NCBI GenBank assembly: GCA_051362555.1
Contig: CM120642.1
Coordinates: 1,984,001-2,048,000, forward strand
Length of the DNA: 64,000 bases
Source: Lingula anatina
Lineage: Eukaryota; Animalia; Brachiopoda
Direction: 5' to 3'
The notes beneath the pieces are model-generated. The model saw nothing but the letters and a program-made list of their open reading frames with translations. It was not told the origin of the DNA and did no database searches. Shown piece after piece: positions 19,453 to 62,248 of the stretch (position 1 is the first letter of the stretch; every line of letters starts with the position of its first letter). Both the position numbers and the translations under genes were made by a program.

Positions 19453-22400
19453 ATGTGTAGAGTGCTCTTTGCAGTTTTCTGTGTTTTGGTTTGCCTATCT
19501 TTCAATGTCCACGCGGCAACCGTCACACTTTGTGGCGGCAATGTAGTAGATGTCCAGGCAACGGGAATTCAACAAGTTTTTACAAATTACTCAACCTTGA
19601 CGACGGTTTTGGACAGCGTAGACGCGCGGTCCAATTTGGAATGTATCACTAAATGTTCCCAGAATGGTCACTGCGCTGCGGTTGTATTCAGAGAGAGAGA
19701 CCAGAGCTGTGACCTGTTAGATAGTCAGCAGGACGTCACCCAATACTCGTCATCTGAGAAAACAGGAATATTGGTCTCCAATGTGGACATCGTGCTGGTG
19801 AGTGACCACATAAAAGTTCCCCGTGTGTTGTCATCGGAAAAGATCGTGCCTGTTTGTAGTGATTTTGTCTTAATCTTAGTGATCACAGCAAAGGCGCTTC
19901 TGTTTGCTATTTAAATAGTTGCAAAAACGTAAAAGGTAATTTCTCATTTTTATTTTCATTATTAACGACGCTTGATGTAGTGGTACATGTATTCTTGGTG
20001 TAATGATATAATTGGATGTGTTATGTTTGAGTCATTTCTTTAAAAACTTCACGTGAATAATGATGACGGAAAGAAGTACATCAAATTATTTCAAGTAACA
20101 GTAGGCATTTTTCTGTAAAGATTCGGTGCAATATTTCATCGTGTGGTTTAAATAGCTTTTTAAATTTAATTTGATTGAACAACATTGAGGTCATGTGTCT
20201 ACCTTTGTAGTTGGAAAGAGACAAATTTTCACAACCCTTTTTGCTTGTCTTTATTTTAACTGTTTTTGCTGTTCGTTATGTAACGTACATGTAGACAATT
20301 TTGACTTTTCTGGACTCGGGCTCATGTCACTTCCCTGGGACGGAAAATATATGGGTATGACTTTGTTTTTTAGCGAGACAAAAACCTTGAAATCACAAAG
20401 CCAATGTTACCAGCCGCAAATAATAGATAAAATATGATTACGCTATGGTAATGGGTTAACTTTTTTCCTAAATTCGCGTTTCACAGTACCCCGGTCACGC
20501 AATATCACGATTTCTGGTTTAACTTTTGGTTCCAGTTTTGTTTTTTTTAGTTTGCAAGAGCACATATCACTACGAGTCACAAGGCTCTGCAAATCTCTAT
20601 AAAATTTTTTCACATTTTTTCAATAAAATGTGAGCGCAGGCTTTCCTCCTATGCTCGTCAGTCTCCATCACTTAAAAACATAATGTTCGATCAAAATCTG
20701 AGGTCAAAATCTGAGATACCGCATCTTTCAAATCCTAATGTCAAAAAACAGTAGAGTTACAAATGTATACATGAGTTATGAGCACGAAGAAAATTGTAGG
20801 GGAAGCCAGGAGAATATGTAAAAAAACTTTTTTTTTGGGGGGGGGGGGAGGGGGAGGGGGTACAAAATGATTTAAACACCACAAGATCAAGCAAGCAGTG
20901 CAGATCTACATCGCGTATCTTTATTCTTGCAAAAACCCAGTTCCCAGACCAAGCGAAGTGGAAGTATCACATTATTGATCTGCTCTTTATCAAGTATTCA
21001 TGATGAAAATAACTGACATAATACGAGATTGCATAATAACCCCAATCAGCGAGAACCGATAGATCAGTAAACAAACAATAAACGCTTATCGAATTCTAAT
21101 ATTCTTTGCCATGGCATGCACTATATATATATATATTGAATTAGTTACCTTATTTCGAAACAATTTAAATGAAAGATAATTATGTTTTAAGAAAGCTGGG
21201 TTATACGAGTATTTTGTTTGCCTTAAGACAAAAAATAAATTCTTTCTAAAAATATCGGCCTTTACTTTCACATATCTTGGTGTCTGAAGGACAGCAATGC
21301 ACTCTTCCTTTACCTTCCTAAGAACCACGCGTCATAAAGTAGACAATGCAATTTTATTTTTACAGAAGATACCGGAATTTAGTATTGAAAACGATTCATA
21401 ACATTTTTGTCTGTAGTTCCTAAGCATTAATTGTACTCAGTACTGTGTAGTGTAATATCAATGCTTGTGATTCACAAATGTATTATAACTGAAGTTGATC
21501 AAAAGGTATACATTTCGTTTCAAACCAAAAGCTATTGCAAGGTACACCAAAAAGGTAAAAATTGATTAATAAAAATTAATCATTAAAATGCATTTGGGAC
21601 ACATCCGTCAAAACAAATGAAGGAGAACAAAAAGGAGGAGGGATGCCAAGAATTGATTGGTACTCTTTATATTATTATTCGTGCTCTATGTATAGAGATA
21701 CATGTTTGTCCCTGACATATCTCCGTTAGAATCAATTGTGTCACAATCTGGACATCTTTTATCTCTTATTTAGGCGGAAGGGGTGCCTGCACAGCCAACA
21801 TCCCTGACAAATACATTGGTGAATTGCCGTCAGGTCAAACAGTCGGTTACTGGATCATTACGGGGCCATTCCCAGACCCTATCGAACTAACTGTTGATCG
21901 ATCTGTCCCTAAGGGGATTCTCGCTAAATTGCAATCAACTTTAGCGGCTTAGATGTCTGTCACGCCTACTGAGGCTGCTAGGGGGTAGTTAATTATCGTT
22001 TAGCAGCTTCAGTAGGCAAGCCAGACATCTAAGCCGCGTAAGGTGAAAGCAACTTAGCGAGAAACCCCTTGGAGATGGATCGATCCTGTTAGATCTATCT
22101 AGGTATGGGAACCCAGTCTAAGATCTGTTTGGATCTGAATGGTGTAGTGCGCTGTTACATAGTTATTGAGGGTCGTAGTCGTTTTACCCTGATTTCAGAC
22201 CAACTTTAAAACTTAAATTATCAAAATTGAAAATAAAAAAAAAGATCACGAAATTTGCAGAATTTGGTTCTAACTTAGCTGTTTCTATATATTTCCCGTT
22301 ACAGTCAAACCCGCTCCGCACCGACCAGTCAAGTGGCACTGCCGTGTGTTCAGAATGGCCGTGTACGGATACTTCTCGCTGCCGTGAGGATTGCACCAGC

Positions 22401-22875
22401 GGAGAGGCCGTCTGTTTGGGTGAGAATACTTTTCACCATATTGGGAGGGGATGGGAGTTGTTGCATTTATTCCATGTCAGTAAAGAGTTTGTCGCCTGTT
22501 AGGGAAAACCTGTTGAATCAGGGAATGATAAAGAATTTTTTAAAACTACGATTGTCTTGCATATTGTGGTTTGATTCCTGCTAATCTAAAGTATATTGAA
22601 CAATGTTTTGAAAGTTTCTACCGTAAGTAAGCCCAAGAGGCCCGTTTTTTCCCAGCCTGTGGTATATTCAACATAGTATGTCATAAAATTCAAAATATAG
22701 CAACAAGAGCTAAGTGCTGATAGCCATAATTTGTGAATCTATTAGGAAATACGAAAGATTGTGACGAAGCACCGGTGACCAATATTCATTACGAAGGTTA
22801 TCCGAGCAGCTTTGGAGGCGTAAACGGCGACGGCCCGGTAAGGAATGTTGGGGGGGGGGGGGGGGGGCTGATGTT

Positions 22876-22918
<43 letters not shown>

Positions 22919-25900
22919 ATGTGTGTGTGTGTATGTGTCCAATCATTGCATAAATTCGAAGATTGTCCATTAATGGGTGCCTTTCAGTCATAATTATTTC
23001 GATCAGAAAAACAAAAAATTGTCAGCATACTTAAAAGGAAGAGGAGATCGTTTCCGTGGAATTGTGTTTTCATTGTTTTGAGTCAAGGGATGATTTCGTC
23101 GAAAATGATTAACCTTTACATCTATTTGCCTTCCAGAGCTACACATATGTAAAGCAACAGTCCAGCACCGGGCTTCGAATTTCCTACAGTGGAACAATCC
23201 GCGCCGCCATAGCGTGCAACGGTTGTGCCACTGGATTCTACTTCAAGATTAACGGGGCAGAATGTTCCAACCCAGGCACCATTGAATTTGTGGAGTATCA
23301 TGCCTCACGCAGAGACAAGCACGAGCACGGATCATGTAATTATATATAGTCATGTTAGAAATCATGTTTTTGTATTATCGACGGGATTGTTTCTCGGAAA
23401 TCTTGTTGCCTGCATGTAACAACTGCTCTTAAAATATGACGTTATGTCATTATGGACATTTTTTATGTGTGCTTGTGTTTGAAACTTTGAGTTAAGATCA
23501 GTAAAAAGTAGAAAATTGGTGATGAGGTCAAAATTTCACAAATAGCTTTTACCCAGAATATCCAAAAAAAAAAAAACAGAACATACAACATTGAATGTCC
23601 AAAAAAGATATAGGACGCCATCTGCGGAAATTCAGTATCAAAAATCGAAAAGCCAACATACACTTGATTTTAATTCGAAATTAATCTGCAATTGCTAAAA
23701 TACTTTTTCTGGGACCTACTGCATATCGAATAATAACCATTAAATTGTGTTGGGACACTTGGAAAAAAATGTTTAACCGTCTCAAACCTTTAGGTCCACT
23801 TAAGGTGTGTTTCCCGTCTGATTTCGGCTTACTTGGCACAGGAAACCAGATGACTGCTGACAAATAAAATCAATTGCTATAGTATAGGGTACATCACAGG
23901 AACCAGATTTGTATTCTATAGTGAGCTAAAAAAACTTATCATCATCATCAGACGTCCCGCTGAGATGAGTGATTATAAAACAGGTCAATGCAACTTGGTT
24001 AGCAATGCAACTTTAGAAACTCCACTGATTAGAAATATGTCAATTTTGAGTGTGGGCGATGTTCTGTTTTAACGCATTTTTTTTCTATATTTTCTCAAAG
24101 TCTCTGGTATTTGCTGGGGAATTGCTGCAGGTACTCTCACCATACAGATACACATCCGAGACCGGGGTGGTGGGGCGGACGCTCACATGGGATGGAACTC
24201 ATACGGGTATTTCGCATTTGAGGAGATAGGACCAACCGGCACTGGTAAATTAAGCTGAATATGACCGTGCTCGTTATTGTCATTATATGTGTTTTCAATA
24301 TAATTCTTGATTCAATTTTGGTTATTGTAAGAAACAGTATGTTTCTTTCTAGAGAAATCAGCCATAGATGCCAACACACAAACGTGCGCTCGCGGTAATA
24401 ACTCTTATGAATTACTCTTATTTTTTCTTCAGGGTCATGTGATTCATATACTTTGTTCAACGTTAAAGAGTTTACCCTCCACCAGGAGATTTCAACACGA
24501 GATGAAAATGCATACATGGTATGTAAAGATTCAGCGTTGATTTTCTAGAGGATGCAAATATAAAGCCAATTTATAATAATACATATGCCAAATATACGCA
24601 CATGAAGTCAAATCTTTGCCAATACATACGATTAAATGCCACCATACACTTTCAAATAGCAAACTTCAAGGGAATATCAAAAATTTTCAGTGGTTTTCGT
24701 TTCATATTTCTGAAAAAATGACATGTATTTAGATATATACTTTTATCGTCTTCGCCAAACCGCATTTGAATTATTGTGCTATTGCGCGCGCAGCAGGAAT
24801 GCGTCATATATTGCTACGTCATTTGGCGGCCTTTTACGAACTACATGGACAGAGAAGGTCAAGTTTACGACCAGAAATTTAAATAAAATGTGCTTTTTCA
24901 GTTTTTATGGCTGATCGAGTGATTAATTTTGATTATGTTTTGGCATATGGACTTAATTTAAGTCGTATAAGAAACCGTAGTAGTAGCAGTGATTTATAAG
25001 TCTCACAGGGAAACTACGCTCACTTCATACGTTAGTATATAGAATGATTCTATAGAACGTATAAGGCGACATTTTAAACAAAATAACGGTTGGTAAGAAC
25101 ATCATGTTTATATTTATATTTATATACTGTGCTTAAATTATAGACGGAAACCTACACAAAGCGGGCGTCGGACACTAGTGTAGCAGTGTTCTTTACTGGC
25201 ACGCTTCACGAGTATGGAAATGGTCACTGCGCAAGATGGTACTTTAAGTTTAATGGGAATGAGTGCTCAAATCCGGGGATAATCGACGCATTCATATATA
25301 ACAACGGCGATAACAATCCACACACCTACAGGACATTTGAGTGTAAGCACAGTCATTTTAGTTGAAACTCGAAACAAACTTAGACAAGTGAAAATTCTGT
25401 TTAATTATCGTCTTTTCGGGTAGTTAATGCGTGCGAAGTACCTAATTAAATAGTCTCATCTCTATATTTTACGAAAAAAGATATTTAAACCTAGGACCAA
25501 TCAAACTAAAATCATGTATTCGATGGATCTTATTTTGAACATAATCAGCTTTTAAGTTAAAAGTTGCCAAACAGTTGCAGATTTAGTAGCAAGAGAATTT
25601 TTTTCCACACGTGTCACCAACGAAGTCTGTTTGTGTTGAAATAAGTGAATAAGTTGTATTAAGAGCATTAACTGAAAAGTGTATATAACTGGAAGGTAGG
25701 TGGAGAAGGGGGCATTTTTCATAACTCACAGTTATCATAAATTAAATGCGATTCTTTGACATCGAAACATTCTGAATTTTAACACCTTAAGTAAACCTAT
25801 ATGATAGTGCCACTATACAATCAGATCATTTGTCATTAGCCACAGATTATATTAAATACTAATTATAGATATTATTGCTTTCAGTTTCTGGAATCTGTAA

Positions 25901-28160
25901 CGGTTTTTCGGCCGGAGACGTTACAATAAGCCTACATACAGGGAGTTGTAGCTGGACGGGTGGCCAACATAGCCCTACGACCGGCTGGACCACCATTTCT
26001 AGAATAAGAGTGGAAGAGACTAGACTTGGCGTTGACGTCAGCGCTCGTAAGTATAGATGTGGCTGCGCTTCCAGTGTGATAACCGCACACAGCATAGGAC
26101 ATACAGTAATATGGCATATGATTGTTATGGGACATATTACCGCTATAGACCAGTATAGTAGCGATTATTTCATTGAAACAAGTAAAATGTCACGAAAGGG
26201 TTTCTCAACATTAGGACCCCAATAAGGCCAAGATCATTTCCTACCTGAATCCGCCCATGGCAAAGTCTACTTTTTGACCAAAATCCAAAAGGCCAAAGAG
26301 GGTATTCAAATGCAATCGAAAGTTTGCACCTTAATAACTTAGATCCTTCATTTCGAATAAAGAAAGGTATGGTCAGCCAGTGAAATAATTTGGAACCCTT
26401 AAGAAGTCAAGGTCACTCAAAATGTCAAAGTGAACCTCAAAATAAGAGTAAAGGCGCTGAGCATACTTTATTTTCACGAAAATGCAATTTTGTAACTTTT
26501 CTACAGGTAGCTCCTACTAAGTACCGCATTCAAATGACCACCTTTTGAATGTCTTAATAAGGTATTAAATTAAAATTAAAAGTACGAAATCAAAGGACAA
26601 TAGTTTGTTAATCATCGGAGGTCAAGATCATATTGGGAAATAATCTGGGCTCTATCCCCCCCCCCCAAGTGGACTAGAATCAGTCAAAAAAGAACTTAAT
26701 TATTATTTTTCCAACCTCAGACACTTATTTACTGGACTATTAGCAGCAAAATGTAGTATACTTTAGTACTTTGGTTGGTTACATTTCACAACGGATTTAT
26801 TGGTTGCTCCTTCTCTATTATATACTTGCATTTAACCATTAATGAATAAAACTAAAACTGAGTTTTTATGTGGAGACGTTCTGAAAAGCAAGTTTTGTGA
26901 GATACGTCATTGATTTGGCTACATGTGTATGCTGAAATGATTGCTTTTGTTTCAGTGGTGGGAACATCCGGCATTTCGGCTCTTAGGCTCCCCGTCTTCA
27001 ATCGCCAGTACTGGTGGTACCCTGTGATGAATTTTGATTCGGAAAGGACAACGGTCAAAGTAATTTTTTTGTCAATACTGGGACAAATACATGAATGAAA
27101 GCACTTGTTTTTTAGATCAAAATAAATTAGTGTTTTACTTAGTCGACTTAATTTGTTAAGAATGTTAAACTATCTTGATTGTACGTTAAGTGATATATTT
27201 TACAAGCAAAACCACACTAATTTTGTTTACTTTATTCCGTGCCACTCTTGAACTTCCCCAGATTGGTAGGTTAAAGCTTTAAGCGCTAAGTTGGCACCGT
27301 TATGACTGGAATGGGTGCCGGCTAAAAACTGTAGTCCTATCTCCATTGCTTTGTGCTTACCCGTACTAATCATATGGAGCCCGGACTTTCATTCCTAGGA
27401 CTTCCATTCCTGTTATACCGGTGCTAACCATACGAGACCCCGGACATCCATTCCTAAGACTACCATTCCTGTCACACTGGTCTTGTTTTGACTGATGTCA
27501 CACTTGGGATGTTATCATACCTTGGTCCATGACTCTTTGGAGATTTTGTTATGGAATGGTTTTATTTCAGAGTGAGACATATAGCAAGAAGTCTGCTCTT
27601 ACTGCTCTGAGAGTCCTATGGAATGGAGACACCCGTCAGTGGAACAACGGCCAATGTGCCCGGTGGTACTTTACATTTAACGGCACAGAGTGCAGCAATC
27701 CAGGCACCATAGAAAGTGTTAAATACGCCTACTACTATGATGCAAGCTCTGTCAATTTACATAGCCCATTCACAGGTATATTGGAACTATAACTTACCTT
27801 AGACTGAACAATGAGAGTTAGACCTTGATGTAACAAAAATGTGATATTTCAGCACTTTTTACAGAGAAGGTTAATTTCGCTTGTATTGGTAAACGAGTCT
27901 TTACATCAATATCTTTTCTCTCCCCCACCCCCCTTGCTGTCACGGGCGCGCGGGCCTGAGCGCACATAGACACAAACAAAGTTTTAATTCATTAACCATT
28001 CATTTCAGTACAAGGGACATGTGTGGGTCTGCCAGCTGGGGACATCACTTTGAATTTTGCCGTGTCTCATTGTTCTGGATACAGTGGGGAAAACGCCTTC
28101 ACCGCCTGGGGGAGTGCAAGCAATATGATGGCAGAAGAAATTTTCCTGGACACCTACTGA
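19453..28160 (+). CDS. Gene D: secreted PAN/apple + EGF-like + 3x CTHRC1 C-terminal-domain protein (600 aa, no collagen repeat)
   Basis: Exons 19453-19797, 22305-22419, 22746-22837, 23137-23335, 24101-24244, 24433-24518, 25144-25342, 25885-26046, 26956-27059, 27571-27775, 28009-28160 = 1803 nt, open, all GT-AG. PAN signature ARSNLECITKC..C.AVVF....CDLL. CTHRC1-like motif ALRVLWNG..CARWYFTFNGTECSNPGTIE..H..F.V.G.C.G...GDI recurs three times, with variation. Confidence 0.88.
21869..22111. mobile_element. Fully palindromic MITE in intron 1 of gene D
   Basis: About 110-bp imperfect inverted arms (e.g. GCGGCTTAGATGTCTG / CAGACATCTAAGCCGC; CTACTGAGGCTGCTA / TAGCAGCTTCAGTAG); absent from gene E. 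Confidence 0.75.
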
Positions 28161-28996
28161 TATACAAGTCTGTAACAAGGCATAAATTAAACATCGACGC
28201 CTTTGTACCTTCATAAAAGAATGTTTTTGCAGTACTTTTCATTACTTTTTGTTTTCGTTTTTATGTATGTGACGCTGTAACAGAAATGAAATGTTTCTTA
28301 TTGCATGTTTGCGTTATTGATTTGCTTCTGTATTCTAAACCCGATTAAGCCAACCATTAACTGAATTGATGCACTTACTAGTTACCGTATCGCAATCAAT
28401 AAACTTGCATTTCGTATCTAGGTTTCGTAACTGTGCATAATTTCATTTTTAACTTTAATTTTAATTTTTAACAGCATGTTTGTCAATAAACAATGTTTTA
28501 TTTTTAACAGCGTAAAGGGACCAATAAAGACGTGAGAGATAATTGCCGAAATGTGACTTAAAACACTCGCTCGTTGAGTTGATTTTGTGTGAAATTATTT
28601 GCATATTTCATTTAAACAGGTTGCTAAAAGGTTAATACCCTTTTGGACAAGACAAGTTACCAAGGGGGTGGTTTATCGGTACCGACATACCTCTTACACA
28701 TTTCTCTTTAAAGATATTCTATATAAGATGTAAGTTTTTTTTACACCAAAATATATTTTTACCTTTTAAACTGAATTCTTCTATATCAAATGGCAACTCA
28801 AAGCACCATATTTATATCGGTAAAACGCAGCATCGCACAAGCTGTATTTGCGTACATTACCGCTATCCGTCCGCTGACAATTTACTGTCACGCATGCGCC
28901 ATAAACTTCGCCTCTGTTGCTTCTGTTTTGCATACGGTTATTAAAGCGCTCACACTCCGTAAACCAGGCACAGTTTGGAGATGAACCCCCGACAAT

Positions 28997-31900: not shown

Positions 31901-33600
31901 AATAAACAATTACTCTAAACCGTATTTGCGTTACAGATATTATTTCATTCATTTTTATTTTATTTGTTTGATCTTTTTTTAAACCCGAGATGGTAAGATT
32001 AATTTTTGCTTAAAGACCTTGTGAAAGAGGTAATCACTTTAATTTGGGAGCAGTTTTATTCCTCTGATACAAGCTCCCAATTTTCTTTTAATGTCCATAA
32101 AATAGACATAAGGAATTCAACAATAGATATAAGATTGAAATCATCTATAACATTTTGCGATAGTTTCATTGTACTTCTTCGTTTGTAAGCTTTGCTTGGA
32201 GAGAGATTTCAATGTGTTTGATTCACAAATGTATCATAATGAGCAAAAGGGAAACATTTCACGCTATAAAGCACACACACACACACACACACGTTTTTGT
32301 CCATCAAAGCCATTAAAATGCATTATTAATTTATTCTAGAGTAGTGCATGAGACCGAGACGAGAACATTTTATCTCTGTAATTGGAAGCAAAATACAAAG
32401 CTTCAACGATAAACAAAAGAACAGAAATTTCATTAAATTAATGGTTTCTTGATTACGCTCAAATACATTGTAAAATAATCAAAACATTGTATTCACTTCA
32501 CAAAGCTTTAAAATGGAAATGAGAAGGATTGTATTAACGCCCAAAACTATAGGAACACACTATAAATGACTTAAATATATCAATTAGAATACATTACTGA
32601 CAAATCCTTCTAAGCTAATGAACAAGATCAAATAAAACGTGTTAAACCACTAATTGATTGTTACTTTTTATCCACTTTGTGCTTTATAGCCCATAAGGTG
32701 TACCCTGATGTCGTTTGATAAAAATCATACATAATATTTTGCGATGTTCTGATTGAAGCACATAGTTTGTATGCATTGCTTAAATAGAGATTGTGTTTGA
32801 TTCACAAATGTATCATATTAATCAAAAGGGAAACATTTCATTTCACGCTATAAAGCTCACACACACACGTTTTTGTCCATCAAAGCCTTTTTTTAGACAA
32901 ATTTAAAATGCACTGCTCGGTAATTCTATTGCAGTGCGTGATACTGAGACATGAACACTTCATCGCTAATGTTTGTCATTGGAAGCAAAATACAAAGCTG
33001 TAACCATAAACAAAACATAAATTTCATTGAATTAATGGCTTCTTGATGTAGTGTGTTTACTCTCGAAAACACTAAAAAATCAAAACATTGTATGCCTCCT
33101 ACAAAGCTTTAATGTGTAAAAGAAAAGCACTGTATTAACGCCCAAAATAATTTGAAGGCACACTGACAAAGAAATATATCATTAGGATGCCTTAGTGACA
33201 AATTCCTCTAAACTAATGAGCAAGACCATTTAAATGTGTAAAACAACTAATTGATAGTTACTTTTTATCATCTTTGTGCCATATGGTTTATAAGATGTCC
33301 CCGATGTCGTTTCAGACCATTTTCAAAATTGCGAGTGTAGTTTATGTTTAAAGATCTCTTAATGAATAGTAAATATTACGGCCTATTGGGAGAAGGTTTA
33401 TTCCACTGATTCAGTCTTGCAATCTTCTTTTTATGTCCATAAAATAGACAATGGGATTTTAATAAGAGATATAAGATAAGGTTATCCATAAAATATTTTG
33501 AGATGTTTTGAATGTAGTTTGTATGCATTGCTTGAAGAGAGATTGCAATAAGTTTGATCACAAATGTATCAAAAGGGAAACATTTCATTTCACGCTTTAA

Positions 33601-49800: not shown

Positions 49801-52800
49801 CAGATGGGTTTGTAATTCTTGATGTCTTTCCTATTGCCCTTTTTGAACATTATGATCATGTTGGCGTTCTTCCAAGCTACAGGAATTTTCTTCAGATGTA
49901 AACACTTTGTGAAGAGCCTGGCTAATTCCTGAGATAGGATATCTCCTCCTGCTTTTACCATTTCTGCTTTGATGTTGTCATTTCCTGCTGCCTTTCCGTT
50001 CTTCATTTTCTGGACTGCTGACTCTTTTTTCCAAAATGTTATGTCTGGTAGATCGCATGCCTTTGTTGAGATTTCTATTCCCTTGTTGCTGTCATACAAC
50101 TCTCCATAGAATTCTTCTACTCGTTCTAATATCTGGTCTTGTGTGGTGAGCTCATTTTCATCTTTGTCTAGAAGGGTCAGCATTCTATCCTGCCCTAGTT
50201 GAAAGGATCTCTTTGCTCTTTTCATGCTCTTTCCATTTTCAATGGTCTCTGCTATCTTCTTCATGTTCTGCTTCCTGATGTCTTCCCTTGCCTTCTTCTT
50301 GATGGTCTTATCCAGTTCTGCATATTCGATGTTGTTTCTGATGTCCCTGTTGTTGTTTACCTCCGTTTTCTTCATCATCCGTCTTTTCTTCATGAGAATC
50401 CTCGTTTCTGTTGAGAGCTTAGAGTCCTTCATTTTACTGGCCGGTGCACATTCTAGGATGCACATTCTAGGATGGTGGTCGTTATTCTATCGTTCATTTC
50501 ATCTACTCCATCTTCACCTTCTAGCTCTAGTGCACTGAATCTGTTCGTTAGGAGGATTTGGAACTCGTCTTTCTTTATGACCAGTTGCTCGATACTAGGT
50601 CTCTTTGATGGATTTGACAGGCATTTCTGTCTGTCCTTCCTGACATTGATCCTAATCACTCCCATAACTGCTCTGTGGTCACTACCCGCATCCAGTCTGT
50701 TTAGCACTTTCACATCCGTGAAGATGTTCGGTCTGTTTGTCATGATGTAATCAGTTTCGTTTCTTGTACATCCATCTGGGCTTTGCCATGTCCATCTTCT
50801 TGATATCTTCTTCTTGTAGACGGTATTCATGATCTTCAAGTTATTTGCTGTCGCCCATTCAATCAGTAAGTCTCCTCTTTCATTCCTCTCTCCGCTGCCA
50901 AATTTCCCTGTGGCACGCTCTTGTTCGTCTGACTTTATCCCGATCTTGGCGTTGAAATCACCCATGACTATGTGGTAGTGGCAGTCTGTTGTCAACTGAC
51001 GTTGTACTTCTTCATACAGTTGTTCTACTTCTTCATCTGGTCTGCTTGATGTTGGTGCATATACCTGAATGAGTTTCATTGAGAATATCTGATTCACTTC
51101 GAGCTTGACTGTAGCCACCCTTGCGCTAATTTGCTTTACCTCGATGATGTTCTTAGCACCTTGTGTATCAGAAATCCAACTCCTTGTTGGCCATTTGAAG
51201 CATTTGTATGGTACAATATATGTCCGCTATTCAAGGTAATTAAGCGTTTTTCCGCTCGCCTAATTTCTGACAAGCCTATCACATGCCATTTAACTCCGGT
51301 GTCCTGAAGTTCAGTTTCCAATTAGATTAGTCAAAATCTTAACATTTGCTTGTCACCCTCAAAGGTGCATGCGCACTATCGACGATGTTTGCCACTGCAA
51401 GGGGGTAGTGGGCGAAACAGAAGGGGTATTCTTATGAAAAGAATTATGATTCATCATCTGAAATTACGCAGACTGTACGTCCTGGAGCCTTAAACCGAAA
51501 AAGGTGCAATAATAATTAGCATTGCCTGAAATTAAAGTGAATGCCATTTAAGTGTCATATCCTGTAACAGAAATTAAAAACTCGTTATGATGGATATTAA
51601 AATTACAAGGGTAGGCGAACAACAAAAAATTCATTCGCTGCCTGGCTAACCTGGAAAAATAAACTATTTTATCAATATTGATTAGCACAGCATTTTGTTC
51701 AAGTCAACCACAAAATATTTCCAAATGCACAGTTTTCCATCTTGTCACGGATTTCAACAGTGAAGTGTTGGCATCTCATCAAACATCTCTTCAAACCTGT
51801 AAAATTCTAAGGTCAGTACATACTTCAAATGCAAACAGGAATGAATGTACTTAGCTTAACAAACGCAAGTATAACAAAGTTTAAAAAAAAAAAGAATAAT
51901 GCTTACATTAATTGGGAGTAGCACGTATTGTAAAATATCAAGACATACAAAATATATTCGCCAAACAAACGTTGCATGCTTTTTTATGCACATTCCATTC
52001 ATTTAACAAGTTTACAACCAATTTATATCATCTCTTGTACTCAATACTTACCCTTACTTACGTGAATTCTATGTGAATTCCGATCAGTCATGTCATGAGG
52101 AAAAAACACAGCACCGTCGAACTTCTAAAAGTAACAGTCTAGAAAAACTATGTGTACATTTGTTTAAAGTAACAGGTATGTGTAATTAAGATGAACCTTA
52201 GATACGATATTTAGCTGTATCCAATAGAAATCAAGTCCGCCACATGCTACACCCCCTGAGTCGTCAGTCTTATGACGTATTATTTCGAGTCGCGTCTGTA
52301 TATCAATTTCTTTAGGCATCTTCTAATATGTCGTTACGCCTCTCTCTTTCTCTCTATTTTCTTCCCTGTCACTGGTATGTTATTTGCCTTAATGTACTCC
52401 AATGTGGCCTTATTGAGATTTTCAACGGGCTCCCAAGTATTCTGACTTCGTGGAAATCCTTTCCGCTTAATGAGGTACTGTGTTTCACCGTTTTTCCTCA
52501 CTCGACCTCTTAAGACCTTTCCTACTTCAAATAATTCATCTGTCTGGGACAAATCCGCTTGTCCTCCAGTCTCATTTTCTTGTTGCCCGTCACTTTCTGG
52601 CTCAATCTATTTACATGGACAAGTGTTTTTACTACATGACATGACATTGTCTGACACACGGCTTAATTTCACATTAACAGGTGTCGGCATATCTATGATA
52701 GTGAATGGACCAAGACGTGCTAACTTTTTGGTGCATCCTTTCGGGACAGCTGGATTGTAAACGAATACACGATCGCCTATTTGATATTTCACATCTTGAG

Positions 52801-55800
52801 CTTTCCTATCATACAATCTTTTCATTCTCTCTTTTGCTTGTTCTATATTCTCATGGGCTATCTCTTGGGCGACGCTTAATTTCTTAATCAAATTTTGAAT
52901 GTGGTAGTTCATTGACGGGGATTTTATTACTGGGGACAGAAGAGCTACATCAATTGGTAAACGTGCCTCTTTGCCATATAACAGGAAAAATGGACTCATC
53001 ATAGAGCTTGCGTTTGGTGTAACTCGTATACCCATTAGAGCTGAGTTAACAAATAAATCCCAATCTTTTTGATTCTTTGAAACATAATTTCATAATGTTT
53101 TCATAATCAACCCGTTTAATCTCTCTACCTGACCGTTAGTCATGGGGTGGTACGAACTAGTTTGGATTTTTGACATGTCTGTGTATTTGCATAACTCCAT
53201 CACTATGTCTGAGAGGAAATTACTGCCTCTATCACTTAACAAAGTTTTGGGTACCCCATGCCTGCATATTATCTCATCAAAAAGCAATATTGCAATGGTA
53301 GGTGCTGTAATGTCGGGTACCGGGAATGCTTCTGGCCATCTAGTTAAACTGTCTATGAATGTAACCAAATTCTTATTCCCTCGAACTGGTAGAGGTGTTA
53401 TGCAGTCAACAGACAAAGGTAACAACGGAGCCCTGAAATCTTTTGGAGGGTTTTTCTTTGTCAAGCATTCAACACAAGAACGCACGTAATCGACCACATC
53501 TGCGAACTGACCTTTCCAAAAATACTTCATCCGCAATGCTAAGTATGTTTTCTGAATGCCCCCATGACCGATTGTGATATCATCGTGTAAACTAGACAAA
53601 ACTTTGTACTTCAACTTGTCTGGAATAACAAGCAAATAACCTTCTGAGTGGGGTGATTTCCTTCCTTTGGGGACATAAATATGATGTAAAAAACCGTCTA
53701 TCATCACGTAATCTCCGATTTCTAACAACAAACGTCGAGCTTCTTTACTACCAAGTGGTAGTTCATCTGATGTCAAATACGCCATAATTGACGCAAGGTT
53801 CTTATCTTCACGCTGGAGTTTTAGCAATTCTTCTTTTGAAACAAATGACTGATAATTCTGACATTTTGACAAACGATCTGTGTTCTTTGTCTTCCCTTTA
53901 ATTGCTAAAAGCATTCCACACTTATCTGATCTGTTGTCACTCTTTTTAGAGTTATCGTCAAGTACCTGTCCTGAGATGGGGTCTGACATCTGTATTTTGT
54001 TCAAACACGCGTCACTTGGAATTGAACTCTGCATTGTGTCATAAAGTTTGTCCAAGTCTAATTCTTCATCATCGTTTTCCATGTCGTAAGGGCGGCGGCT
54101 AAGCGCGTCTGCATTCGCGTGGTTTTTTCCTTTTCTGTGTTCAATAGTAAAATTGTAAGGGGACAAAGTCAGTATCCATCGACACAATCTTCCACGCGGT
54201 TGTTTTTGTGACAATAACCATTTAAGGCTATCGTGGTCTGTGATGACTTTGAATTTGGAATGCCTAAGGTAGATATCGAAATATTTTATACCTTGTACAA
54301 CTGCTAATCCTTCCAATTCCGTGATGGGATCATTTTTCTCGTGTCTTTTTAAACCTCTCCCGGCATAAGCGATGACTCTTTCATTACCGTCTTGTATTTG
54401 TGATAGAACCATGCCTAACGCGTGTGAACTCGCGTCGGTGTACATAATAAACGGGAGATTAAAATTGGGATACGCAAGAATTGGAGCAGATGTAAGCGCA
54501 GTGTTCAGGGTATCGAAACTTGTTTGGCATTCTTCAAACCATTTAAATTCTTTCCCCTTTTGTGTAAGAGCTGCCAAAGGTCTAACTAAGCCGGCGTAGC
54601 CTTTTATAAACTTCCGATAGTAATTTGCCAATCCTAAAAATCCGCGGACTTGCTTAACTTTTAAAGGAACTGGGAATTCCCGCACCGCCTTACACTTCAT
54701 AGGGTCAACATGAACCCCGTCTTTGGAGACTATGTACCCTAAATATTTGACTTCTTTTCGTGCAATAAAACATGTAGATGGCTTCAATGTTAAGTTCGCT
54801 TTTCTTAGCCTTTGGAAAACAGTTTCTACATCACGAAGGTGATCTTCAAAAGTGGGACTCGCAACTATAATGTCATCTAAATATAAGAAAAGTGTTTTCC
54901 ATGATAAACCTCGAAACACATTTTCTACCATTCGTGAAAAAGTTGCGCCTGAACTTTTGAGACCCATCGGCATTCTGTTAAATTCAAAAAGACCGGCATG
55001 ACAAACGAATGCACTCATCGGTTTACTTTTTTCTGATAACCCTACTTCCCAATTTCCACTTCGAAGGTCAAACGTTGACATGAATTTCGGTTTAATTGAC
55101 CCCAACGCGTCTATCGTATCGTCAATTCTCGGTAAAGGGTAAACATCGTCTTTTGTAACCGCATTCAGCTTTCTGTAATCAATGCAAAAACGATATGAGC
55201 CATCTGGTTTTTGTACTAAAACAACCGGACTACTCCACGGAGAGACAGATGGTCTTATAATACCTTCTTGTAACATGTTCCCCACCTGTTCTTCTATAAC
55301 CTTCCGATGTTTCGGTGACGTTCGATACATTTGCGAACGAATGGGCATTTGATTTGGGTCCACTCTGATATCATGTTCAATGCCTGGGGTCATTTTCAAA
55401 GGCTCCCCAGGTTGTTTAAATACGTCCGCATATTTCGACAACAAATCAACAAATTCTGCTTTTTGTTCACTAGTGATATCTGAATCACTGAAATCTGCAT
55501 CAGGGACTTCGTTTCTTGTTTCATTCACCGTCGTCGGAGCTATAGTTCTTCCCGGCTTTTCTGTATCGTTTGAAAATTCAGTAATTTTTGTATCTTGGGG
55601 CAAAATTGAAAAATCTACTGACACTTGCCCTTTCAATGTGATTCGTGTGTTATTTGTAGCCACAGCTGTCGTTTTTGTAGATGTTATGATACGTAGTGAT
55701 TTTAGAGTGTCGTGTTTCCGTAATAGGTCGCTATTCACAATTGTAACATATGATCCTGTATCTATCAAAGCACTAATTTTGATTCCATTGATTAGCAATT

Positions 55801-58800
55801 CTACAAAATTGTTTTTCCCTAATTTTATTTCCTTTTCACATAATGATCGAACGGGTGCCCCTAGAAATATGTTGGCAAAATTCACCCCGTTCTTTTCCAA
55901 TTCGTGATTTTTGCTGTTCTAGGTTAAATTTCGGTTCCCATTGTAAAAGTTTTGCGTCCCTCGAGTATTTTGTTGTCGGGAATTTGGAAATGGTCTGCAA
56001 AATTTCTGTATGTGCCCAAATCTGTTGCATTTAAAACAACGGGGCCCCCCTGTAATCTGTTTTTGACGCCGACACGCAGCGTTTGTGTGCCCGTTCCTAC
56101 GACAGTAAGAACAGTACGGTGTTCCCGCAAAGTGTTGTTTTCCTACTTGCTCGCGTCTAATTTCCCGGCGAATGTCATCAATTTGTTTTTCTTGCTGTTT
56201 CATTATTCGCTGGAGATTTTTCTCAATTCCAGAGACAGATGTTACGATCTCCGGCTTTTCGTTTTCAACCGGTATTGATGCAATTGTTTACCCTAATCGT
56301 GCATGATTTTGTGCTTCTTCTACAGGGTTACCACTTAATATGGAATATTTTTTATCATTGTTATTTTTGAGTGCTGATTAATTTTTTTTGGCTTGAGTCA
56401 TTAAAAAAGTATGTCACAGAGTGATAATAACATCCAGTCTTCTGTTGTGAGATATTTTGGTCAATAATATTAAATCTGACATAAGATGCCATTCAAAAGA
56501 AAGGAACACCCCCAGAAAACCATATCAACAGTTTGATGTCAGTATAAACTTTAAGATAAGATATTAAAGAAAATGATAGCCTCCGAACAGTGATATGTTA
56601 CACAGTCAAAGAACTCACTACAGTAAATCATGGAAAGTCAGTAATTGCGGGTATGACCTCCAGCAGCCGCTTGCAGCGACCTCATCCTACATGGCATATC
56701 CTTTGACACGATTTTTAGAGTTTGGGTGGGGATATCATTCCACGCAGTGATATTTGCCTCTCGCAGTTCATCACTGTTTACCGGCCGAGGACCATAGCTA
56801 TTAATTCTGTGAGTTACTTCCGCCCACAGATTTTCAATTGGGCTCATATCTGGAGAGTTTGCAGGCCAGGACAGTTGCTGAACCCATTGGTTTTGAAGAA
56901 AAACAGTGATTCTGCGGCCTCGATGTGGGGTTGCGCAGTCGTCTTGGTACACAAAGTTGTTCCTGAAGATGAATCTTACCAATCGAAGCATTGTTTGCTG
57001 TAGAATGTCTCTGTAGGAATCCTGGATGAGGTTGCCTCCTAAAAAAACGAACTGGTTCTGGGCACCGACATGAAATACTCCCCAAACAGAGACGTTACCA
57101 TCCCCTGCTTGCACCCTAGGCAGTACACAATCATTGTTTTATGCCCCTACTACACGTCGGTGGACACGGATTCGACGATCAACCCTAAAAAATCCATATC
57201 TGGCCTTATCACTGAAAACAACGTGATTCCAGTGTTTTGGCTGCAAACGCACGTGGTCCCCAGCCCTTTGCAGACGTCGCTGTATATGACCTGCTGTTAA
57301 CAGTGGTTTCCCTACTGGCCTTCGTGCAAAATAACCGGCTTGCAGAAACGGGCGTTTCAATGACATTCTGCCTCTCTTTTCTGAGGACACTGGTTGTCTT
57401 TGTACGACCAGCACGGCCTCCACTAAGGAGAAGGCGATCCTGTCTTCTTGGTGTGATACGCGGACACCCAGGTTGAGGTATTGGAGTAGGTGCCCCTGTA
57501 GCAGCATTTCTTTGGAGGACTTCACAAACGGTTACTGATAAATGTTGAATAACCTGGCAATGGCTGTCCGTTTCTGGCCATTTTCTCTGAGAGCAAGAAT
57601 CCCATAGTAAGCTGCGTTGCTTTGCTGTCGTACCATATCTTCACTAAGGTACCTGTCAAGTTTCAGAGCGAACCCTTTGTTGCTTCTCTAAACACGCTCC
57701 AAAGATTGACCAAACCCATGCGTTTTTATACAAGGGCAGAAATTGCCGAAAAGACCACCCCTCACATTTCTGACCACAGAACATGCAACTGCATGCATCA
57801 ATTGTTTCTAGAGTTGTGTGGTAATTAGGTAACACATCTGGCTACACATGGAGTGACACCTCAGCTTTGGATTTAAAGTAGTTAGAGAGAAATTAAATAT
57901 TTTGTAGAAAATTTATTCGCCAAAAAATAATAGTCCATATTAAGTGGTAACCCTGTAAATTAGATGGGTTTTGCGCAATAACAAAACGTTTTATTTCGTT
58001 CCGTAACCCTCTCACGAAATACGCGAGTCTGTCGTCCACACTTTTATTAAGCAGAGAAAAACGGTGTCGCATATCCGCGATGTAAACCTCGATGGATTCA
58101 TTTTCTGCTTGTTTTCTTTCTCCGAGTTCGTGTTCTCTAGTCCATTTTGACGTTTGTCTGTCGAAATTGTTTTGAAATTCAGTTTTAAGAACATCGTAAC
58201 TCGATTTTCTTGCGTCAGACAATTCGGATAGCCATATTTCAGCAGGACCTTTCATGTATAGCATAAAGGCATGCAAATTCCGATCTGGGGAATATTTATT
58301 CAAATTGCAGTAATTTTCGAACCTCGTAAGCCATAACCGGGCGTTTTCTGTTGAAAAGCCAAAGAATGTATCGATATTTGGACCCGCAGAAACGGAAGTT
58401 GGTTTTTCGTTTAATTCTGTAAGTTTTCTCTGAAAGAGGGTCATCTTTACCCATAACATCTAATTTCATGTGAATATCTTCTAACTGGTCTCGAATATCT
58501 AAAAAAATCAAAAGGTTCTTCCTTACCTTTCATTTCTTTTGTTTGTCCGGTAGCCATCTTCTTTTCGAATAGAATACGTTCGCGTCTGGATGTCTGTCTG
58601 GTGACTGGTCCTTCTCTATCTGACATCATTCATATCTAAAGTCTCTTTTTCTTTTTGCATCCTCCACCATATGTGACGACGTAACTGACTTTGACTTACT
58701 GGTGGCGCGAGGTAATAACTAAACAATTCCATGTTTTCCTATATTCTTTATTATCGCTTTCTAACTACGCTGTCTACAGTTTATTCCTCTCCGTTCAACC

Positions 58801-61800
58801 TCTTACATCGTTCTCCCCGTCTACATTACATTCTTCGCTTAAGTACAGTTAGGTCTTGTGAATCAACCAAAGTGACACTACAAAACACTCCCCGCTCTTA
58901 TTCGCTGCATGCTGTCACTTACTAACGTTACAGGCCTACCAATTGCTCAATGGTACTGAAAATGATTTGGTCCAAAATGATCCAATATGCCGGATTTTCA
59001 TACAAAGAGCGTGGTTGAATATCATGTTTATATTTATATACTGTGTTTAAATTATAGACGGAAACCTACACAAAGCGGGCGTCAGACACTAGTTTAGCAG
59101 TGTTCTTTACTGGCACGCTTCGCGAGTATGGAAATGGTCACTGCGCAAGATGGTACTTTAAGTTTAATGGAAATGAGTGCTCAAATCCGGGGATAATCGA
59201 CGCATTCATCTATAACAGTGGAGATAACAATCCACAAACCAGGAGGACATTTGAATGTAAGCATAATCATTTTAGTTGAAACTCAGAACCATTTTTGGAA
59301 ATAAAATTAGTGTTTTTATCATCATTTTGGGTAGTTCATGCTTAAAAAGTACCTAATAAATGGTCTCATTTCTAGTTTTTTTACGAAAAAAAAATTGAAC
59401 CTAGAACCCGACAGACTAAAATCGTGTATTTAATAGTTTGAACGTGAATTAGAAGAAATAGAATTCCTTTTCCACAACAACAACAAAGTATGTGTGTGTT
59501 GAAATAAGTGTATTAGTTGTAATCATAGATGAAATGAAAAGTGTATAGAACTGGAAATGTGATGTTGATCTAGACGTGTAGGCCTATTACTATACTGTAG
59601 AGGGAGGAAGAAGGGGGCGGGGCCTGGAACTGTTCCTAACTCACAGTTATCCAGATAAATCAAATGCGTTATCTCTGGCATCGAAAATGTTGATATTCTT
59701 TTTCAGATTTTACACTTCTTTTTCAGATTTCACACCTAAGTAAACCTTTGTATTGATATATAATGGTGCCACTATTCAATCCGGTCATTTGTCGTTAGCT
59801 ACAGGTGCTTTTCGGTTCACGTTATCGATATTATTGCTTTCAGTTTCTGGAATCTGTAACGGTTTTCCGGCAGGAAACATTACAATAAGTCTACACACAG
59901 GGAGTTGTAGCTGGACGGGTCCCCAACATAGCCCTACGACCGGCTGGACAACTATTTCTAGAATAAGAGTGGAAGAGACGAGACTTGGCTTGGACATCAG
60001 CGCTCGTAAGTATAGATGTCGCTGCGCTTCCAGTGTGATAACCGCAATAGTCCGAAGGTTCATTGGTCCGAATGTTCACTACAGAACCTTCGGACCAATG
60101 AACCCTTGATTAATAAACCGATGAAAATGTTACCTTTTTTCGGACCAATGGACCTTCGGACCAATGAACCTTCGGACTATCGAGACGCCCCCGGGACATA
60201 CAGTTGTATGACATATTATTGTTATGGGACATATTATCGTTATAGACCAGTATAGTAGCAAAGGTGTTTTTAATATATTACAGGACATGGGATGTGGTAT
60301 GGCAAAGGTAGCCTCCCCCCTGTTTAAATGTTATAATACCGTTACTATAAAATGTGTAGACATTCACCAACGACCTATCGTCAACATATTCTAGTTCCCC
60401 TCTGTGTCCTTGTATATACAGTAGCTTCACTGAGTATGTCGGGTCAACCCGTATAATGTAGCACGCAGCCATTCCCTGAGATACGCCACTGATTGGCTAC
60501 ATGCGCATGTTTAACCCTTGCTTTTGTTTCAGTGGTGGGAACATCGGGCATTTCGGCCCTAAGACTCCCCGTCTTCAACCGCCAGTACTGGTGGTACCCT
60601 GCCATTAATTTTGAAACGGAAAAGACAACGATCAAAGTAAGTTTGTTTCTTATCAATATCGGGGCAAATATCTGTGTGAAAAACACTTGTTTTTGTGTCA
60701 AATGTCAAATGGGTCTTGTTTGGCCAACTTGATTTGTTAAAAATTTCAAACCACCTTAGCAGATATATATGTCATAGGCCAGATCCCAATCTAGTCCACT
60801 GCCTAAGTGGCCCAGACCAAATCCCAATTAGGACATTGTCCACATCCCAGTTGTGTCTTTGCATTGTTTTAACAGCATAAGGAGCATGTAATATACAGTT
60901 GAGCTGCCAGTTTGGTCAGGCCCGCAGCCGGGGGGGGGGGGGGGGGGGGGGGGAGGGGGGGGGTTCGGGGGGTTCGAAAGAACCGCCCCTTTTGGTGGGA
61001 AATGGTCCCCGCTGGGTAAAATTTGATGTAAGTTCATGAAGTTTTTATGGAAAAGGTCCACTTTTTCAGAAAAAGAACCCCCCTTTTGAAATTGCTGGCT
61101 ACGGGCCTGTTGGTTGTATACCATGTGTAATTAAATAGGGGATGTCATAGATCAAGGCAAATATTTTGATACTTACAGTTGTGGCAAATGAAATATAGTT
61201 GTATTCATCTGAGGATGATTTTTTAAAGACTGTTGCATAAATATTTAAAGGTAAAGCATTTTAATTTAATACAATATAATAATATCAAAATAGATTGATT
61301 TAAAAATATCCAGTAAAGGAACGTAAATCAAAGGTGTAGCAGCGAAAGCTAACAATGTATCATTTGTATAAATTTTATGACAACCTGTCCATTTTCCCAA
61401 TAGTAAGTGGTCATTTTTATTACAAATGTGGATTTTATCCAAGTGAAAACATATTGAGCTCATAGTACCATTATATGTGTAGTGTTCTATGACATCCCCT
61501 ATTTACTTACATATGCCACACAAACAAACTGGCAGCTCACCTGTAAATTACTTGGCAATTAACATGCTCATTATGCTGTTAAAAGAATGCACGGACGCCT
61601 GCCTTCTTCTGACTGACGTCGCACACGGGATGCTATCATACCTTTGTTCAAAACTATCTGAAGTTAAAATCATGAATGGATTTTATTTCAGAGTGAGACA
61701 TATAGCAAGAAGTCTGCTCTTACTGCTCTGAGAGTCCTATGGAGTGGAGTCACCCGTCAGTTGATCAGGGGCCAATGTGCACGGTGGTACTTCACTTTTA

Positions 61801-62248
61801 ACGGCACCGAGTGCAGCAATCCTGGCACCATAGAAAGTGTCAAATACACCTGGTACTATGATGCAGGAAACGTCGATTTGCACAGCCCATTTACAGGTAT
61901 GTTTGAACCATAACTTACCTTATACTAAATTCACACAATTAGAGTTAGATTGAAGTAACAGAAATGTAATATTCCTTTCAGTACTTTTTCTTTGACGGGT
62001 GAATTTGGCTTGCTTATAGATCAGTACCCCTCCTTCCTGTCACGAGAGTTTGAGCACACATAGACAAAATTTTAATTCAATAACCATTCATTTCAGTACA
62101 AGGGACATGTGTGGGTCTGCCAGCTGGGGACATCACTTTGAATTTTGCCGTGTCTCATTGTTCCTCATACAGTGGGGAGGACGCCTGCACTGGCTGGGGA
62201 ACTGCAAGCAACATGATGGCAGAAGAAATTTTCCTGGACACTTACTAA
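28997..62248 (+). CDS. Gene E: paralogue of gene D (601 aa), introns expanded by repeats and TEs
   Basis: Exons 28997-29344, 43677-43791, 44582-44673, 46100-46298, 46552-46695, 46912-46997, 59058-59256, 59844-60005, 60533-60636, 61692-61896, 62097-62248. Exons 2-11 match gene D in length and phase; no stops or frameshifts found. Confidence 0.85.
31032..31190 (+). mobile_element. Possible fragment of a DIRS/Ngaro-type retroelement ORF1
   Basis: Coiled-coil-like peptide ending EGNRIQFEFN resembles, from memory only, ORF1 of invertebrate tyrosine-recombinase retroelements; no other domains seen. Confidence 0.3.
36439..40071. mobile_element. Non-autonomous TTAA-type DNA element (Kolobok-like) inserted into the array
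   Basis: Interrupts a repeat unit exactly at its TTAA (TCAA|AGGTTTTG ... CAAATCCT|TTAA). Short imperfect TIRs AGG...CCT; no transposase found. Confidence 0.6.
38647..39559. mobile_element. Nested non-autonomous TIR element (~910 bp)
   Basis: TIRs AGCCTCGGTCACAACCGG(C/A)CGCACG at both ends, flanked by TTAA in a palindromic ATGCATTTAAATGCAT site. GC-rich interior with TATAAAAG and a decayed MPPKGKRKK start. Confidence 0.75.
43814..43851. repeat. (AAT)n microsatellite
   Basis: About 12 perfect AAT units directly after exon 2 of gene E. Confidence 0.9.
44849..45654 (-). mobile_element. Solo LTR (~806 bp) in intron 3 of gene E
   Basis: Termini TGTAACG...CGTTACA with 4-bp TSD TTAC on both sides. 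Minus-strand TATA-like GTATAAAAG (~45160) and AATAAA (~44940). Absent from the equivalent intron of gene D. Confidence 0.8.
47165..47423 (-). repeat. 3' LTR of the Gypsy element
   Basis: Direct repeat of 58672-58932 with several substitutions and small indels; preceded by GGCC TSD. Confidence 0.93.
48510..51321 (-). mobile_element. RTE-clade LINE (5'-truncated, decayed) nested in the 3' region of the Gypsy element
   Basis: APE endonuclease (IGLSE, QVYAPT, MGDFNAK, DYIM, SDHR) and RT (GVRQGDTISPKLF, RFADD), RTE-type C-terminus (RGRPVKRW), (TGA)n 3' tail at ~48510-48524. Stop at 49584 and a 14-bp tandem duplication near 50446-50473 break the frame. Confidence 0.92.
52334..55900 (-). pseudogene. 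pol: Gypsy pol: protease, RT, RNase H, integrase, chromodomain (stop at 53090, frameshift near 52600)
   Basis: LIDTGS; YRFCIDYRKLN, YLDD; YTDAS, TDH; GHGG/CxxC, SDRGSNF, NGQVER; GPF; chromodomain FEVGKVL..QYLIKRKGF..NTWEPVENL. Confidence 0.93.
55919..58629 (-). pseudogene. gag: Gypsy gag (frameshifted, interrupted by Tc1)
   Basis: Retrotransposon gag-like WLTRFENYC..MKGPAEIW..LKTEF..FVRGL. Frame resumes across the Tc1 TA site (NPSNL|EEAQNHARL). Two CCHC knuckles, CSYCRRNGHTNAAC and CFKCNRFGHIQKFC. Confidence 0.85.
56323..57955 (-). mobile_element. Tc1/mariner (DD34E) DNA transposon nested in the Gypsy gag
   Basis: ~30-bp TIRs CAGGGTTACCACTTAATATGGA..., TA TSD on both sides. Frameshifted transposase with VVFSD, YQDD-34 aa-E (SPDMSPIENLW), GGHTRNY. 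Confidence 0.93.
58657..58669 (-). other. Primer-binding site, probably tRNA-Ala
   Basis: TGGTGGAGGATGC 2 nt inside the 5' LTR, complementary to a ...GCAUCCUCCACCA 3' end typical of eukaryotic tRNA-Ala. Confidence 0.75.
58672..58932 (-). repeat. 5' LTR of the Gypsy element
   Basis: Direct repeat of 47165-47423; termini TGTAACG...CGTCACA on minus; followed by GGCC TSD on plus. Confidence 0.93.
60044..60192. mobile_element. Short interspersed element with inverted (TCCGAA/TTCGGA) subrepeats (Helentron/HINE-like)
   Basis: ATAGTCCGAAGGTTCATTGGTCCGAA ... TTCGGACCAATGAACCTTCGGACTAT; insertion relative to gene D intron 8. Confidence 0.55.
60917..61108. mobile_element. MITE (CAGGCCCG...CGGGCCTG)
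   Basis: TIRs with TTGGT duplicated on both sides; internal poly-G. Confidence 0.65.

Follow-up and report, generated by a model that had tools for sequence, protein, structure and literature searches.

Two Lingula anatina genes for secreted PAN proteins with three tandem CTHRC1 C-terminal domains, predicted to form a single-chain C1q/TNF-type head

Introduction

What becomes of the trimerising head of CTHRC1 when a single chain carries it three times and has no collagen? This question is raised by a stretch of 64,000 nucleotides of the brachiopod Lingula anatina (assembly GCA_051362555.1, contig CM120642.1, positions 1,984,001 to 2,048,000 of the forward strand; hereafter the window), in which two neighbouring 11-exon genes, A and B, each encode a PAN/apple domain, a cysteine-rich module and three diverged CTHRC1_C domains. 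Structure predictions indicate that the three domains very probably pack with pseudo-three-fold symmetry, as in heads of the C1q/TNF type.

CTHRC1 has drawn much attention in research on cancer and fibrosis. Leclere et al. (2020; PMC7058181) defined CTHRC1 as collagen plus one C-terminal domain, for which a C1q-like trimer was predicted, and counted eight CTHRC1 genes in Lingula, collagen-bearing ones only; a footnote adds that Lingula and Phoronis have other predicted collagen-less proteins with the domain. Neither tandem domains nor PAN are described in the available part of that paper, and a literature search that covered few subscription papers returned no description of the PAN plus three CTHRC1_C architecture. 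The original prediction made for this locus, that the architecture is not known from described proteins, stands to this extent, with the reservation that RefSeq already contains the proteins under the label 'uncharacterized' and that collagen-less ones appear in the footnote (PMC7058181).

Gene models and domain content

A six-frame motif scan of the window returned six matches to the CTHRC1 motif module on the plus strand, each divided between two exons. Splicing by GT..AG rules yields two plus-strand genes of 11 exons, A (19453-28160) and B (28997-62248), with open frames of 600 and 601 residues, GT..AG borders at 20 of 20 introns and the same intron phases; the predicted ends fit both genes, with an ATG at 19453 and a stop ending at 62248. 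The two proteins are 85% identical, and the ratio of nonsynonymous to synonymous substitution rates (dN/dS) between them is 0.33 over the mature protein. In this regard, P0299 (XP_013419938.1, LOC106180489, 'uncharacterized' in RefSeq) is identical to gene A at 597 of 600 residues in a gap-free alignment and provides an independent check on all ten junctions, including the one that joins PAN to CTHRC1. The RefSeq model closest to gene B, LOC106180490, has 449 residues and ends after domain 2. Both 11-exon genes are confirmed, as originally predicted, and comprise the following parts.

19453-19797, 22305-22419, 22746-22837, 23137-23335, 24101-24244, 24433-24518, plus strand: gene A, exons 1-6 (splicing, RefSeq match)
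25144-25342, 25885-26046, 26956-27059, 27571-27775, 28009-28160, plus strand: gene A, exons 7-11 (splicing, RefSeq match)
19453-19797, plus strand: A exon 1, PAN/apple domain behind a hydrophobic, signal-like N-terminus (PAN_1 E 1.2e-07, hydropathy, model)
22305-22419, plus strand: A exon 2, five-cysteine module, EGF-like by spacing alone (sequence; no Pfam match)
22746-24244, plus strand: A exons 3-5, CTHRC1_C domain 1, residues ~162-295 (PF25815)
24433-26046, plus strand: A exons 6-8, CTHRC1_C domain 2, residues ~304-441 (PF25815)
26956-28160, plus strand: A exons 9-11, CTHRC1_C domain 3, residues ~459-597, then stop (PF25815)
28997-29344, 43677-43791, 44582-44673, 46100-46298, 46552-46695, 46912-46997, plus strand: gene B, exons 1-6 (splicing)
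59058-59256, 59844-60005, 60533-60636, 61692-61896, 62097-62248, plus strand: gene B, exons 7-11 (splicing)
28997-29344, plus strand: B exon 1, signal-like N-terminus and PAN, followed by the 14.3 kb intron 1 (PAN_1 E 6.2e-07)
43677-43791, plus strand: B exon 2, five-cysteine module (sequence, RNA)
44582-46695, plus strand: B exons 3-5, CTHRC1_C domain 1 (PF25815, RNA)
46912-60005, plus strand: B exons 6-8, CTHRC1_C domain 2, interrupted by the transposon-filled intron 6 of 12 kb (PF25815)
60533-62248, plus strand: B exons 9-11, CTHRC1_C domain 3, then stop (PF25815)

Exon 1 matches PAN_1 at 31.9 and 29.6 bits in the two genes (cut-off 21.4), and the PAN part of the P0299 and P0195 models, the latter a paralogue, resembles apple domains among solved chains (Z ~8). 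Hydropathy peaks at 2.3 at the N-terminus and stays at or below 1.3 elsewhere, giving a signal-like start and no second hydrophobic segment; the A and B proteins are likely secreted, without a membrane anchor. All 12 core exons match PF25815 (CTHRC1_C) in Pfam, 10 of them exceeding the 27-bit cut-off when taken alone, and P0299 shows three PF25815 stretches (233 bits against the same cut-off). No run of three or more Gly-X-Y triplets and no PF01391 match is found in A or B, and the exons and P0299 gave no C1q family match in Pfam at E up to 0.1.

The signal peptide, the PAN/apple front end, the three CTHRC1 C-terminal domains per chain and the lack of Gly-X-Y repeats put forward in the original prediction are therefore borne out. 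Its EGF-like unit is upheld only as to the five cysteines of exon 2; no EGF profile matches this exon, Atlas EGF clusters reach 0.78-0.79 only, and neither the exon 2 module nor three short exons searched alone gave a Pfam match. The placing of the module start at the (T/S)Y.K motif has to be corrected, as whole-domain matches begin one exon earlier, in exons 3, 6 and 9, about 25 residues ahead of it. Consequently, the repeat is a three-exon unit bounded by phase-1 introns (92/199/144, 86/199/162 and 104/205/152 bases), and we infer that a three-exon module was triplicated.

Three further features of these genes can be mentioned. Intron 1 of both holds a short conserved exon-like stretch, open in A (21727-21818) and stopped in B (43489-43570); a candidate 45-nt exon at 21774-21818, in frame in A, was rejected because a stop interrupts its B counterpart and it is missing from the RefSeq model. 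Exon 11 of B (62097-62248) encodes an extra unpaired cysteine, C582, in a loop of domain 3, which is absent from A and could link two chains. A pairing of C159 with C301 would probably tie domain 1 to the first linker, since P0046, a paralogue that has no cysteine-rich module, retains both residues.

Six of nine raw-read RNA runs for the species were aligned, X1, X4, X7 and X8 on gene A and X2, X7, X8 and X9 on positions 28900-47150 of gene B. GT..AG joints occur at introns 4 (5 reads), 5 (14) and 6 (20) of A, and at introns 2 (7 reads), 3 (10), 4 (11) and 5 (17) of B within that segment; a 3-read joint with B-like letters lies near intron 10 of A, and B exon 1 is covered by reads (X8, X9). 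Among the joints listed for A, none falls at introns 7, 8 and 9, and run X4 gave no exon joints. Most reads are 90-99% alike to the genes and thus derive from other alleles or copies. The RNA thus connects the cysteine-rich exon to domain 1 and on to the beginning of domain 2.

Predicted structure of the head

AlphaFold2 was run on P0299 with an alignment of 61 rows, ~8-18 rows deep over domains 1-2 and ~60 over domain 3, and models were searched against 48,161 solved chains. The P0299 model, an allele of gene A, reached a predicted local distance difference test (pLDDT) of 86.2 and a predicted template modelling score (pTM) of 0.80, and that of P0195, 49% identical, reached 84.8 and 0.79. Residues 162-597 of P0299 align as a whole head with four single-chain trimers, namely C1q 5hzf (Z 26.1, 337 residues aligned, root-mean-square deviation (rmsd) 3.4), adiponectin 4dou (Z 25.9, 336, 3.9), Cbln1 5kca (Z 24.4, 346, 3.6) and APRIL-BAFF-BAFF 4zch (Z 23.0, 344, 3.6), the fifth-ranked chain coming only at Z 8.1. 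The same four lead for P0195 (Z 23.1-26.7; next 8.5), and Foldseek puts the same entries first for both models. PDB sequence searches turned up no solved CTHRC1_C structure.

Support for the pseudo-trimer that is independent of folding comes from a position-wise tree, fixed linkers and period-three repeats. The careful tree comprises 42 domains, taken from the 105 rows of a quick tree, and leaves out sponge, non-animal-like, Branchiostoma and near-duplicate Lingula rows and most single-domain rows. In it, domains 1, 2 and 3 each fall on one side of a branch with moderate support (84/85, 83/87 and 82/50, none starred), and clades by protein are rejected (approximately unbiased test, p-AU 3.4e-06 and 3.8e-10). 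The family domains form a group of their own apart from 11 single-domain CTHRC1 (97/96), in a tree without canonical Lingula sequence. Identity is 0.40 at the same position versus 0.33 between positions, the same position being the best match in 76 of 105 comparisons, and the linkers measure 8-9 and 16-17 residues in nine of nine proteins. Taken together, the two structure predictions, the tree, the linkers and the repeats described below argue that in-chain copies would replace collagen-driven trimerisation, as had been proposed, and the pseudo-three-fold packing expected from AlphaFold appears in the models as the whole-head alignment to the four single-chain trimers.

Paralogues and wider relatives

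Five further named Lingula proteins carry three domains (P0195, P0003, P0005, P0043 and P0046) and are 34-49% identical to A; two Logan proteins, P0045 (with PAN, 611 residues, on a 2,632-base contig) and P0004, also have three. With copy number taken from RefSeq names, the three-domain family comprises ~7 diverged lineages in Lingula. At E up to 0.001 a representative search matched 541 proteins; among the best 150 of these 541 most have one domain.

Period three is seen in 9-, 8- and 5-domain arrays unrelated to the Lingula family. P0194 has nine collagen-free domains, whose identity is 0.60 for offsets of 3 and 6 and 0.36-0.39 for all others, and P0057, which falls in its cluster, is not independent of it; in P0052 identity is 0.88 at offset 3 versus 0.51-0.52 otherwise. 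In addition, P0050 and P0158 finish in exactly three collagen-free CTHRC1_C domains. In a quick tree of 105 rows, the domains of P0194, P0057, P0052, P0050 and P0158 group apart from animal domains, so that triplets apparently had more than one origin, suggesting that collagen-free arrays outside Lingula are independent single-chain trimers. The 3- and 9-copy proteins are tentatively labelled 'non-animal' from sequence features and tree position; prokaryote genomes searched with P0050 gave matches to its non-CTHRC1 part alone, at two loci.

Sponge proteins of Ephydatia (P0006) and Oscarella (P0044) combine a short collagen with CTHRC1_C domains in a tandem of four, an FN2 insert being present in one of the proteins, and indicate that tandem copies need not come in threes; no description of them was encountered in the literature seen. 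Like the Lingula family, the sponge proteins (Ephydatia Em0005g62a, Oscarella P0044) place tandem CTHRC1_C domains in one secreted chain, but they keep collagen, have four domains without periodicity and form a separate group in the quick tree. As a counter-example to triplets, a Branchiostoma model has collagen-free single CTHRC1_C domains behind folate-receptor repeats, and several two-domain records are partial or unclear. Bugula neritina P0051, named CTHRC1, has two tandem domains without collagen, which fall within the domain 1 and domain 2 groups in reversed order and on long branches; this is suggestive only of a family that may extend to other lophophorates.

Discussion

The proteins of genes A and B share with canonical CTHRC1 a secreted nature and the same C-terminal domain, a predicted C1q-like trimerising jelly roll, and differ from it in lacking collagen, in having three diverged domains per chain and in the PAN and cysteine-rich module ahead of them. 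A close parallel lies in bivalve smultiC1q proteins such as HcC1qDC6, likewise secreted, collagen-free and encoded by tandem gene copies, mostly with three tandem C1q/TNF-fold domains (PMC5519582, PMC6835236). However, CTHRC1_C is not gC1q (6-9% identity in structure alignments), and smultiC1q proteins have no PAN. Binding of lipopolysaccharide and peptidoglycan has been measured for bivalve three-C1q-domain proteins (PMC5519582); such binding of pathogen-associated molecular patterns is thus a measured property of smultiC1q, whereas A and B are known from sequence and models.

The engineered trimers 5HZF/5HKJ, 4DOU, 5KCA and 4ZCH share the three-domain geometry over 336-346 residues (rmsd 3.3-3.9), but they are laboratory fusions, the Lingula proteins being natural and their structure predicted. 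As single domains, the models also resemble in fold the TNF-like lectins BC2L-C (N-domain) and PLTL and the C-domains of Chlamydia Pgp3 and Bacillus BclA (Z 6-7.6; Atlas 0.87-0.89, at lead level). These are bacterial homotrimers whose likeness to the Lingula domains is one of fold, and the shared fold shows no function. A and B are neither canonical CTHRC1 nor C1qDC proteins, and as modelled they likely work like a single-chain C1q/TNF head.

A role in recognition or adhesion is the function that we slightly favour given the structure, because the family is expanded and diverged, its loops vary, an identical PAN goes with differing heads, and bivalve three-C1q proteins offer an analogy. Between closely related copies, variation affects 47 of 150 sites in the apex loops versus 7 of 99 in the base loops, apex and base being assigned from strand order and not from coordinates. 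Between gene B and LOC106180490 the PAN differs at 0 of 92 positions and the head at 36 of 294, while gene A and its own RefSeq counterpart differ at 3 of 600; and TNF-like lectins stand among the single-domain look-alikes of the models. The whole reading, in which a collagen-free PAN protein with a one-chain C1q/TNF-type head is a secreted binder of sugars or surfaces, has in our view an even chance.

On this reading, triplication of the three-exon module would precede the expansion of the family and would free the head from collagen and from assembly between chains. Each domain position could then specialise, giving three unequal binding faces, with ligand specificity carried by the loops opposite the termini; PAN would be a second adhesion site, through which a target held by the head would be connected with a cell or with matrix. 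A wider proposal, which we put forward tentatively, is that the C1q/TNF superfamily has in the CTHRC1 head a branch of obligate trimers, which was fused repeatedly into natural single-chain heterotrimers, and that brachiopods and their relatives gained a diversifying, asymmetric, lectin-like recognition family parallel to the bivalve tandem-C1q proteins. If so, the fusions would be separate in lophophorates and in the microbial-looking 3- or 9-copy proteins.

Several points weigh against a single-chain recognition protein. The loop labels mentioned above are one; moreover, apex loops are also the most variable in 12 ordinary single-domain CTHRC1 (0.38 vs 0.55) and their dN/dS is 0.47, hence below 1, no positive selection being found and dN/dS staying below 1 in every class. 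All structural support is prediction, the alignments behind the P0299 and P0195 models have most of their rows in common, and the predictor may be biased towards a C1q/TNF trimer geometry that it has learned. Atlas single-sequence models reach a pTM of 0.57 and 0.45 only, with matches that span about one domain. When domains 1-2 (P0001) and domain 3 (P0008) were co-folded as separate chains, the score was 0.50, the highest of three controls being 0.00; this is weak support, since passes at this level are oftener wrong than right unless the pairing is likely beforehand, and solved look-alikes may help. Agreement between runs covers at least 88% of contacts, with a partner pLDDT of at least 82; the mark is reached by 51 of the 78 solved pairs tested and by 2 of the 108 mismatched ones, and at or below 0.60 it is reached by 5 of 78 solved pairs plus all 4 passing mismatches. 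The sponge four-domain proteins, with their collagen and lack of periodicity, point the same way.

RNA depth is low as well (1-10 reads per joint in ~11 million, from tissues that the runs do not state). Of the junctions for which the original prediction looked to RNA, introns 2-6 were seen, and intron 10 weakly, but the PAN junction (intron 1, 14.3 kb in B) is absent from the joints listed for A and B; the PAN-to-exon-2 junction comes from the RefSeq models and P0045. Finally, a recognition role had been drawn in part from lectin neighbours. These are real, but in animal genomes gene neighbourhood is weak evidence for function, the lectin genes are separated from gene A by a stanniocalcin-like gene, and a shell proteome has been reported to include a member of the family.

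The same head could instead belong to a component of the extracellular or shell matrix that binds collagen or chitin-associated glycans and organises the organic scaffold, which we consider unlikely. The PAN model is weakly like leech anti-platelet protein and saratin (Z 5.2-5.9), and these two proteins bind collagen. In vertebrates, a regulatory role of CTHRC1 in collagen deposition has been reported (PMC7058181). More directly, the 65 Lingula shell proteins of Luo et al. (2015) include 19546, an acid-insoluble protein of 446 residues with a signal peptide, PAN_1 and CTHR1_HUMAN as best hit (Supplementary Table 25, PMC4595640). However, 19546 rests on one unique peptide, without a mantle-specific mark (PMC4595640), and its length and composition do not assign it to A, B or a given paralogue. 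In the available part of the 2026 Lingula shell proteome (PMC13425148), none of six family accessions is found, and the two PAN proteins that it contains are encoded elsewhere, by genes outside the family.

We regard as somewhat more doubtful a signalling ligand or co-factor, whose three unequal grooves would bridge receptors, in the manner of vertebrate CTHRC1 with components of the Wnt/Frizzled or TGF-beta pathways, or of TNF-family trimers. CTHRC1 has been tied to Wnt/planar cell polarity and TGF-beta/BMP signalling (PMC7058181), the predicted head shows TNF-ligand geometry, the N-terminal PAN recalls HGF (Z 6-7), and a low read depth suits a ligand. Yet Lingula retains the eight canonical collagen-bearing CTHRC1 genes (PMC7058181), from whose single-domain kind the family domains separate in the tree described above (97/96; no canonical Lingula sequence included), identity among paralogues is just 34-49%, and the heads are not the same in all alleles or copies. 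That the three domains are independent beads, or that each trimerises across chains into a stacked rod, the compact model being an artefact, is improbable: the collagen-bearing sponge proteins with four tandem domains, the weak co-folding support and the low Atlas pTM are outweighed by the high pTM of two models, their whole-head matches to single-chain trimers, the short fixed linkers and the period-three repeats of collagen-free arrays, and neither collagen nor another obvious trimerising stalk is present in A or B.

If the single-chain head is as predicted, a natural collagen-free trimer would be a handy construct for the first structure of a CTHRC1 head and would put the C1q-like-trimer proposal of 2020 to a direct test. 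The family would also illustrate how a homotrimer becomes a three-faced heterotrimer by triplication of an exon module, apparently more than once, and, in a phylum that has received little study, it is a candidate for a role in recognition or in the shell matrix.

Genomic surroundings

Upstream of gene A, on the opposite strand and beyond a stanniocalcin-like gene, lie lectin receptor-like genes. Positions 1-15400 of the window hold three tandem gene copies on the minus strand, whose products combine C-type lectin domains with a probable membrane-spanning segment and a tyrosine-motif tail, one copy carrying extra duplicated lectin exons. Between this cluster and gene A, exons of the stanniocalcin family occupy ~16600-17900 on the minus strand (PF03298, E 1.2e-06 at 17016-17282).

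Intron 6 of gene B contains a Gypsy-type long terminal repeat (LTR) retrotransposon of 11.8 kb with a chromodomain, on the minus strand at 47165-58932. Its LTRs, at 47165-47423 and 58672-58932, are 92% alike, and nested in it are a long interspersed nuclear element (~48.5-51.3 kb) and a Tc1-like element with inverted ends at 56321-56353 and 57925-57957. In intron 1 of gene B, a repeat-like element at 38648-39563 is abundant in the RNA reads of three runs, which mostly lack ~550-575 of its internal bases and continue into other sequence.

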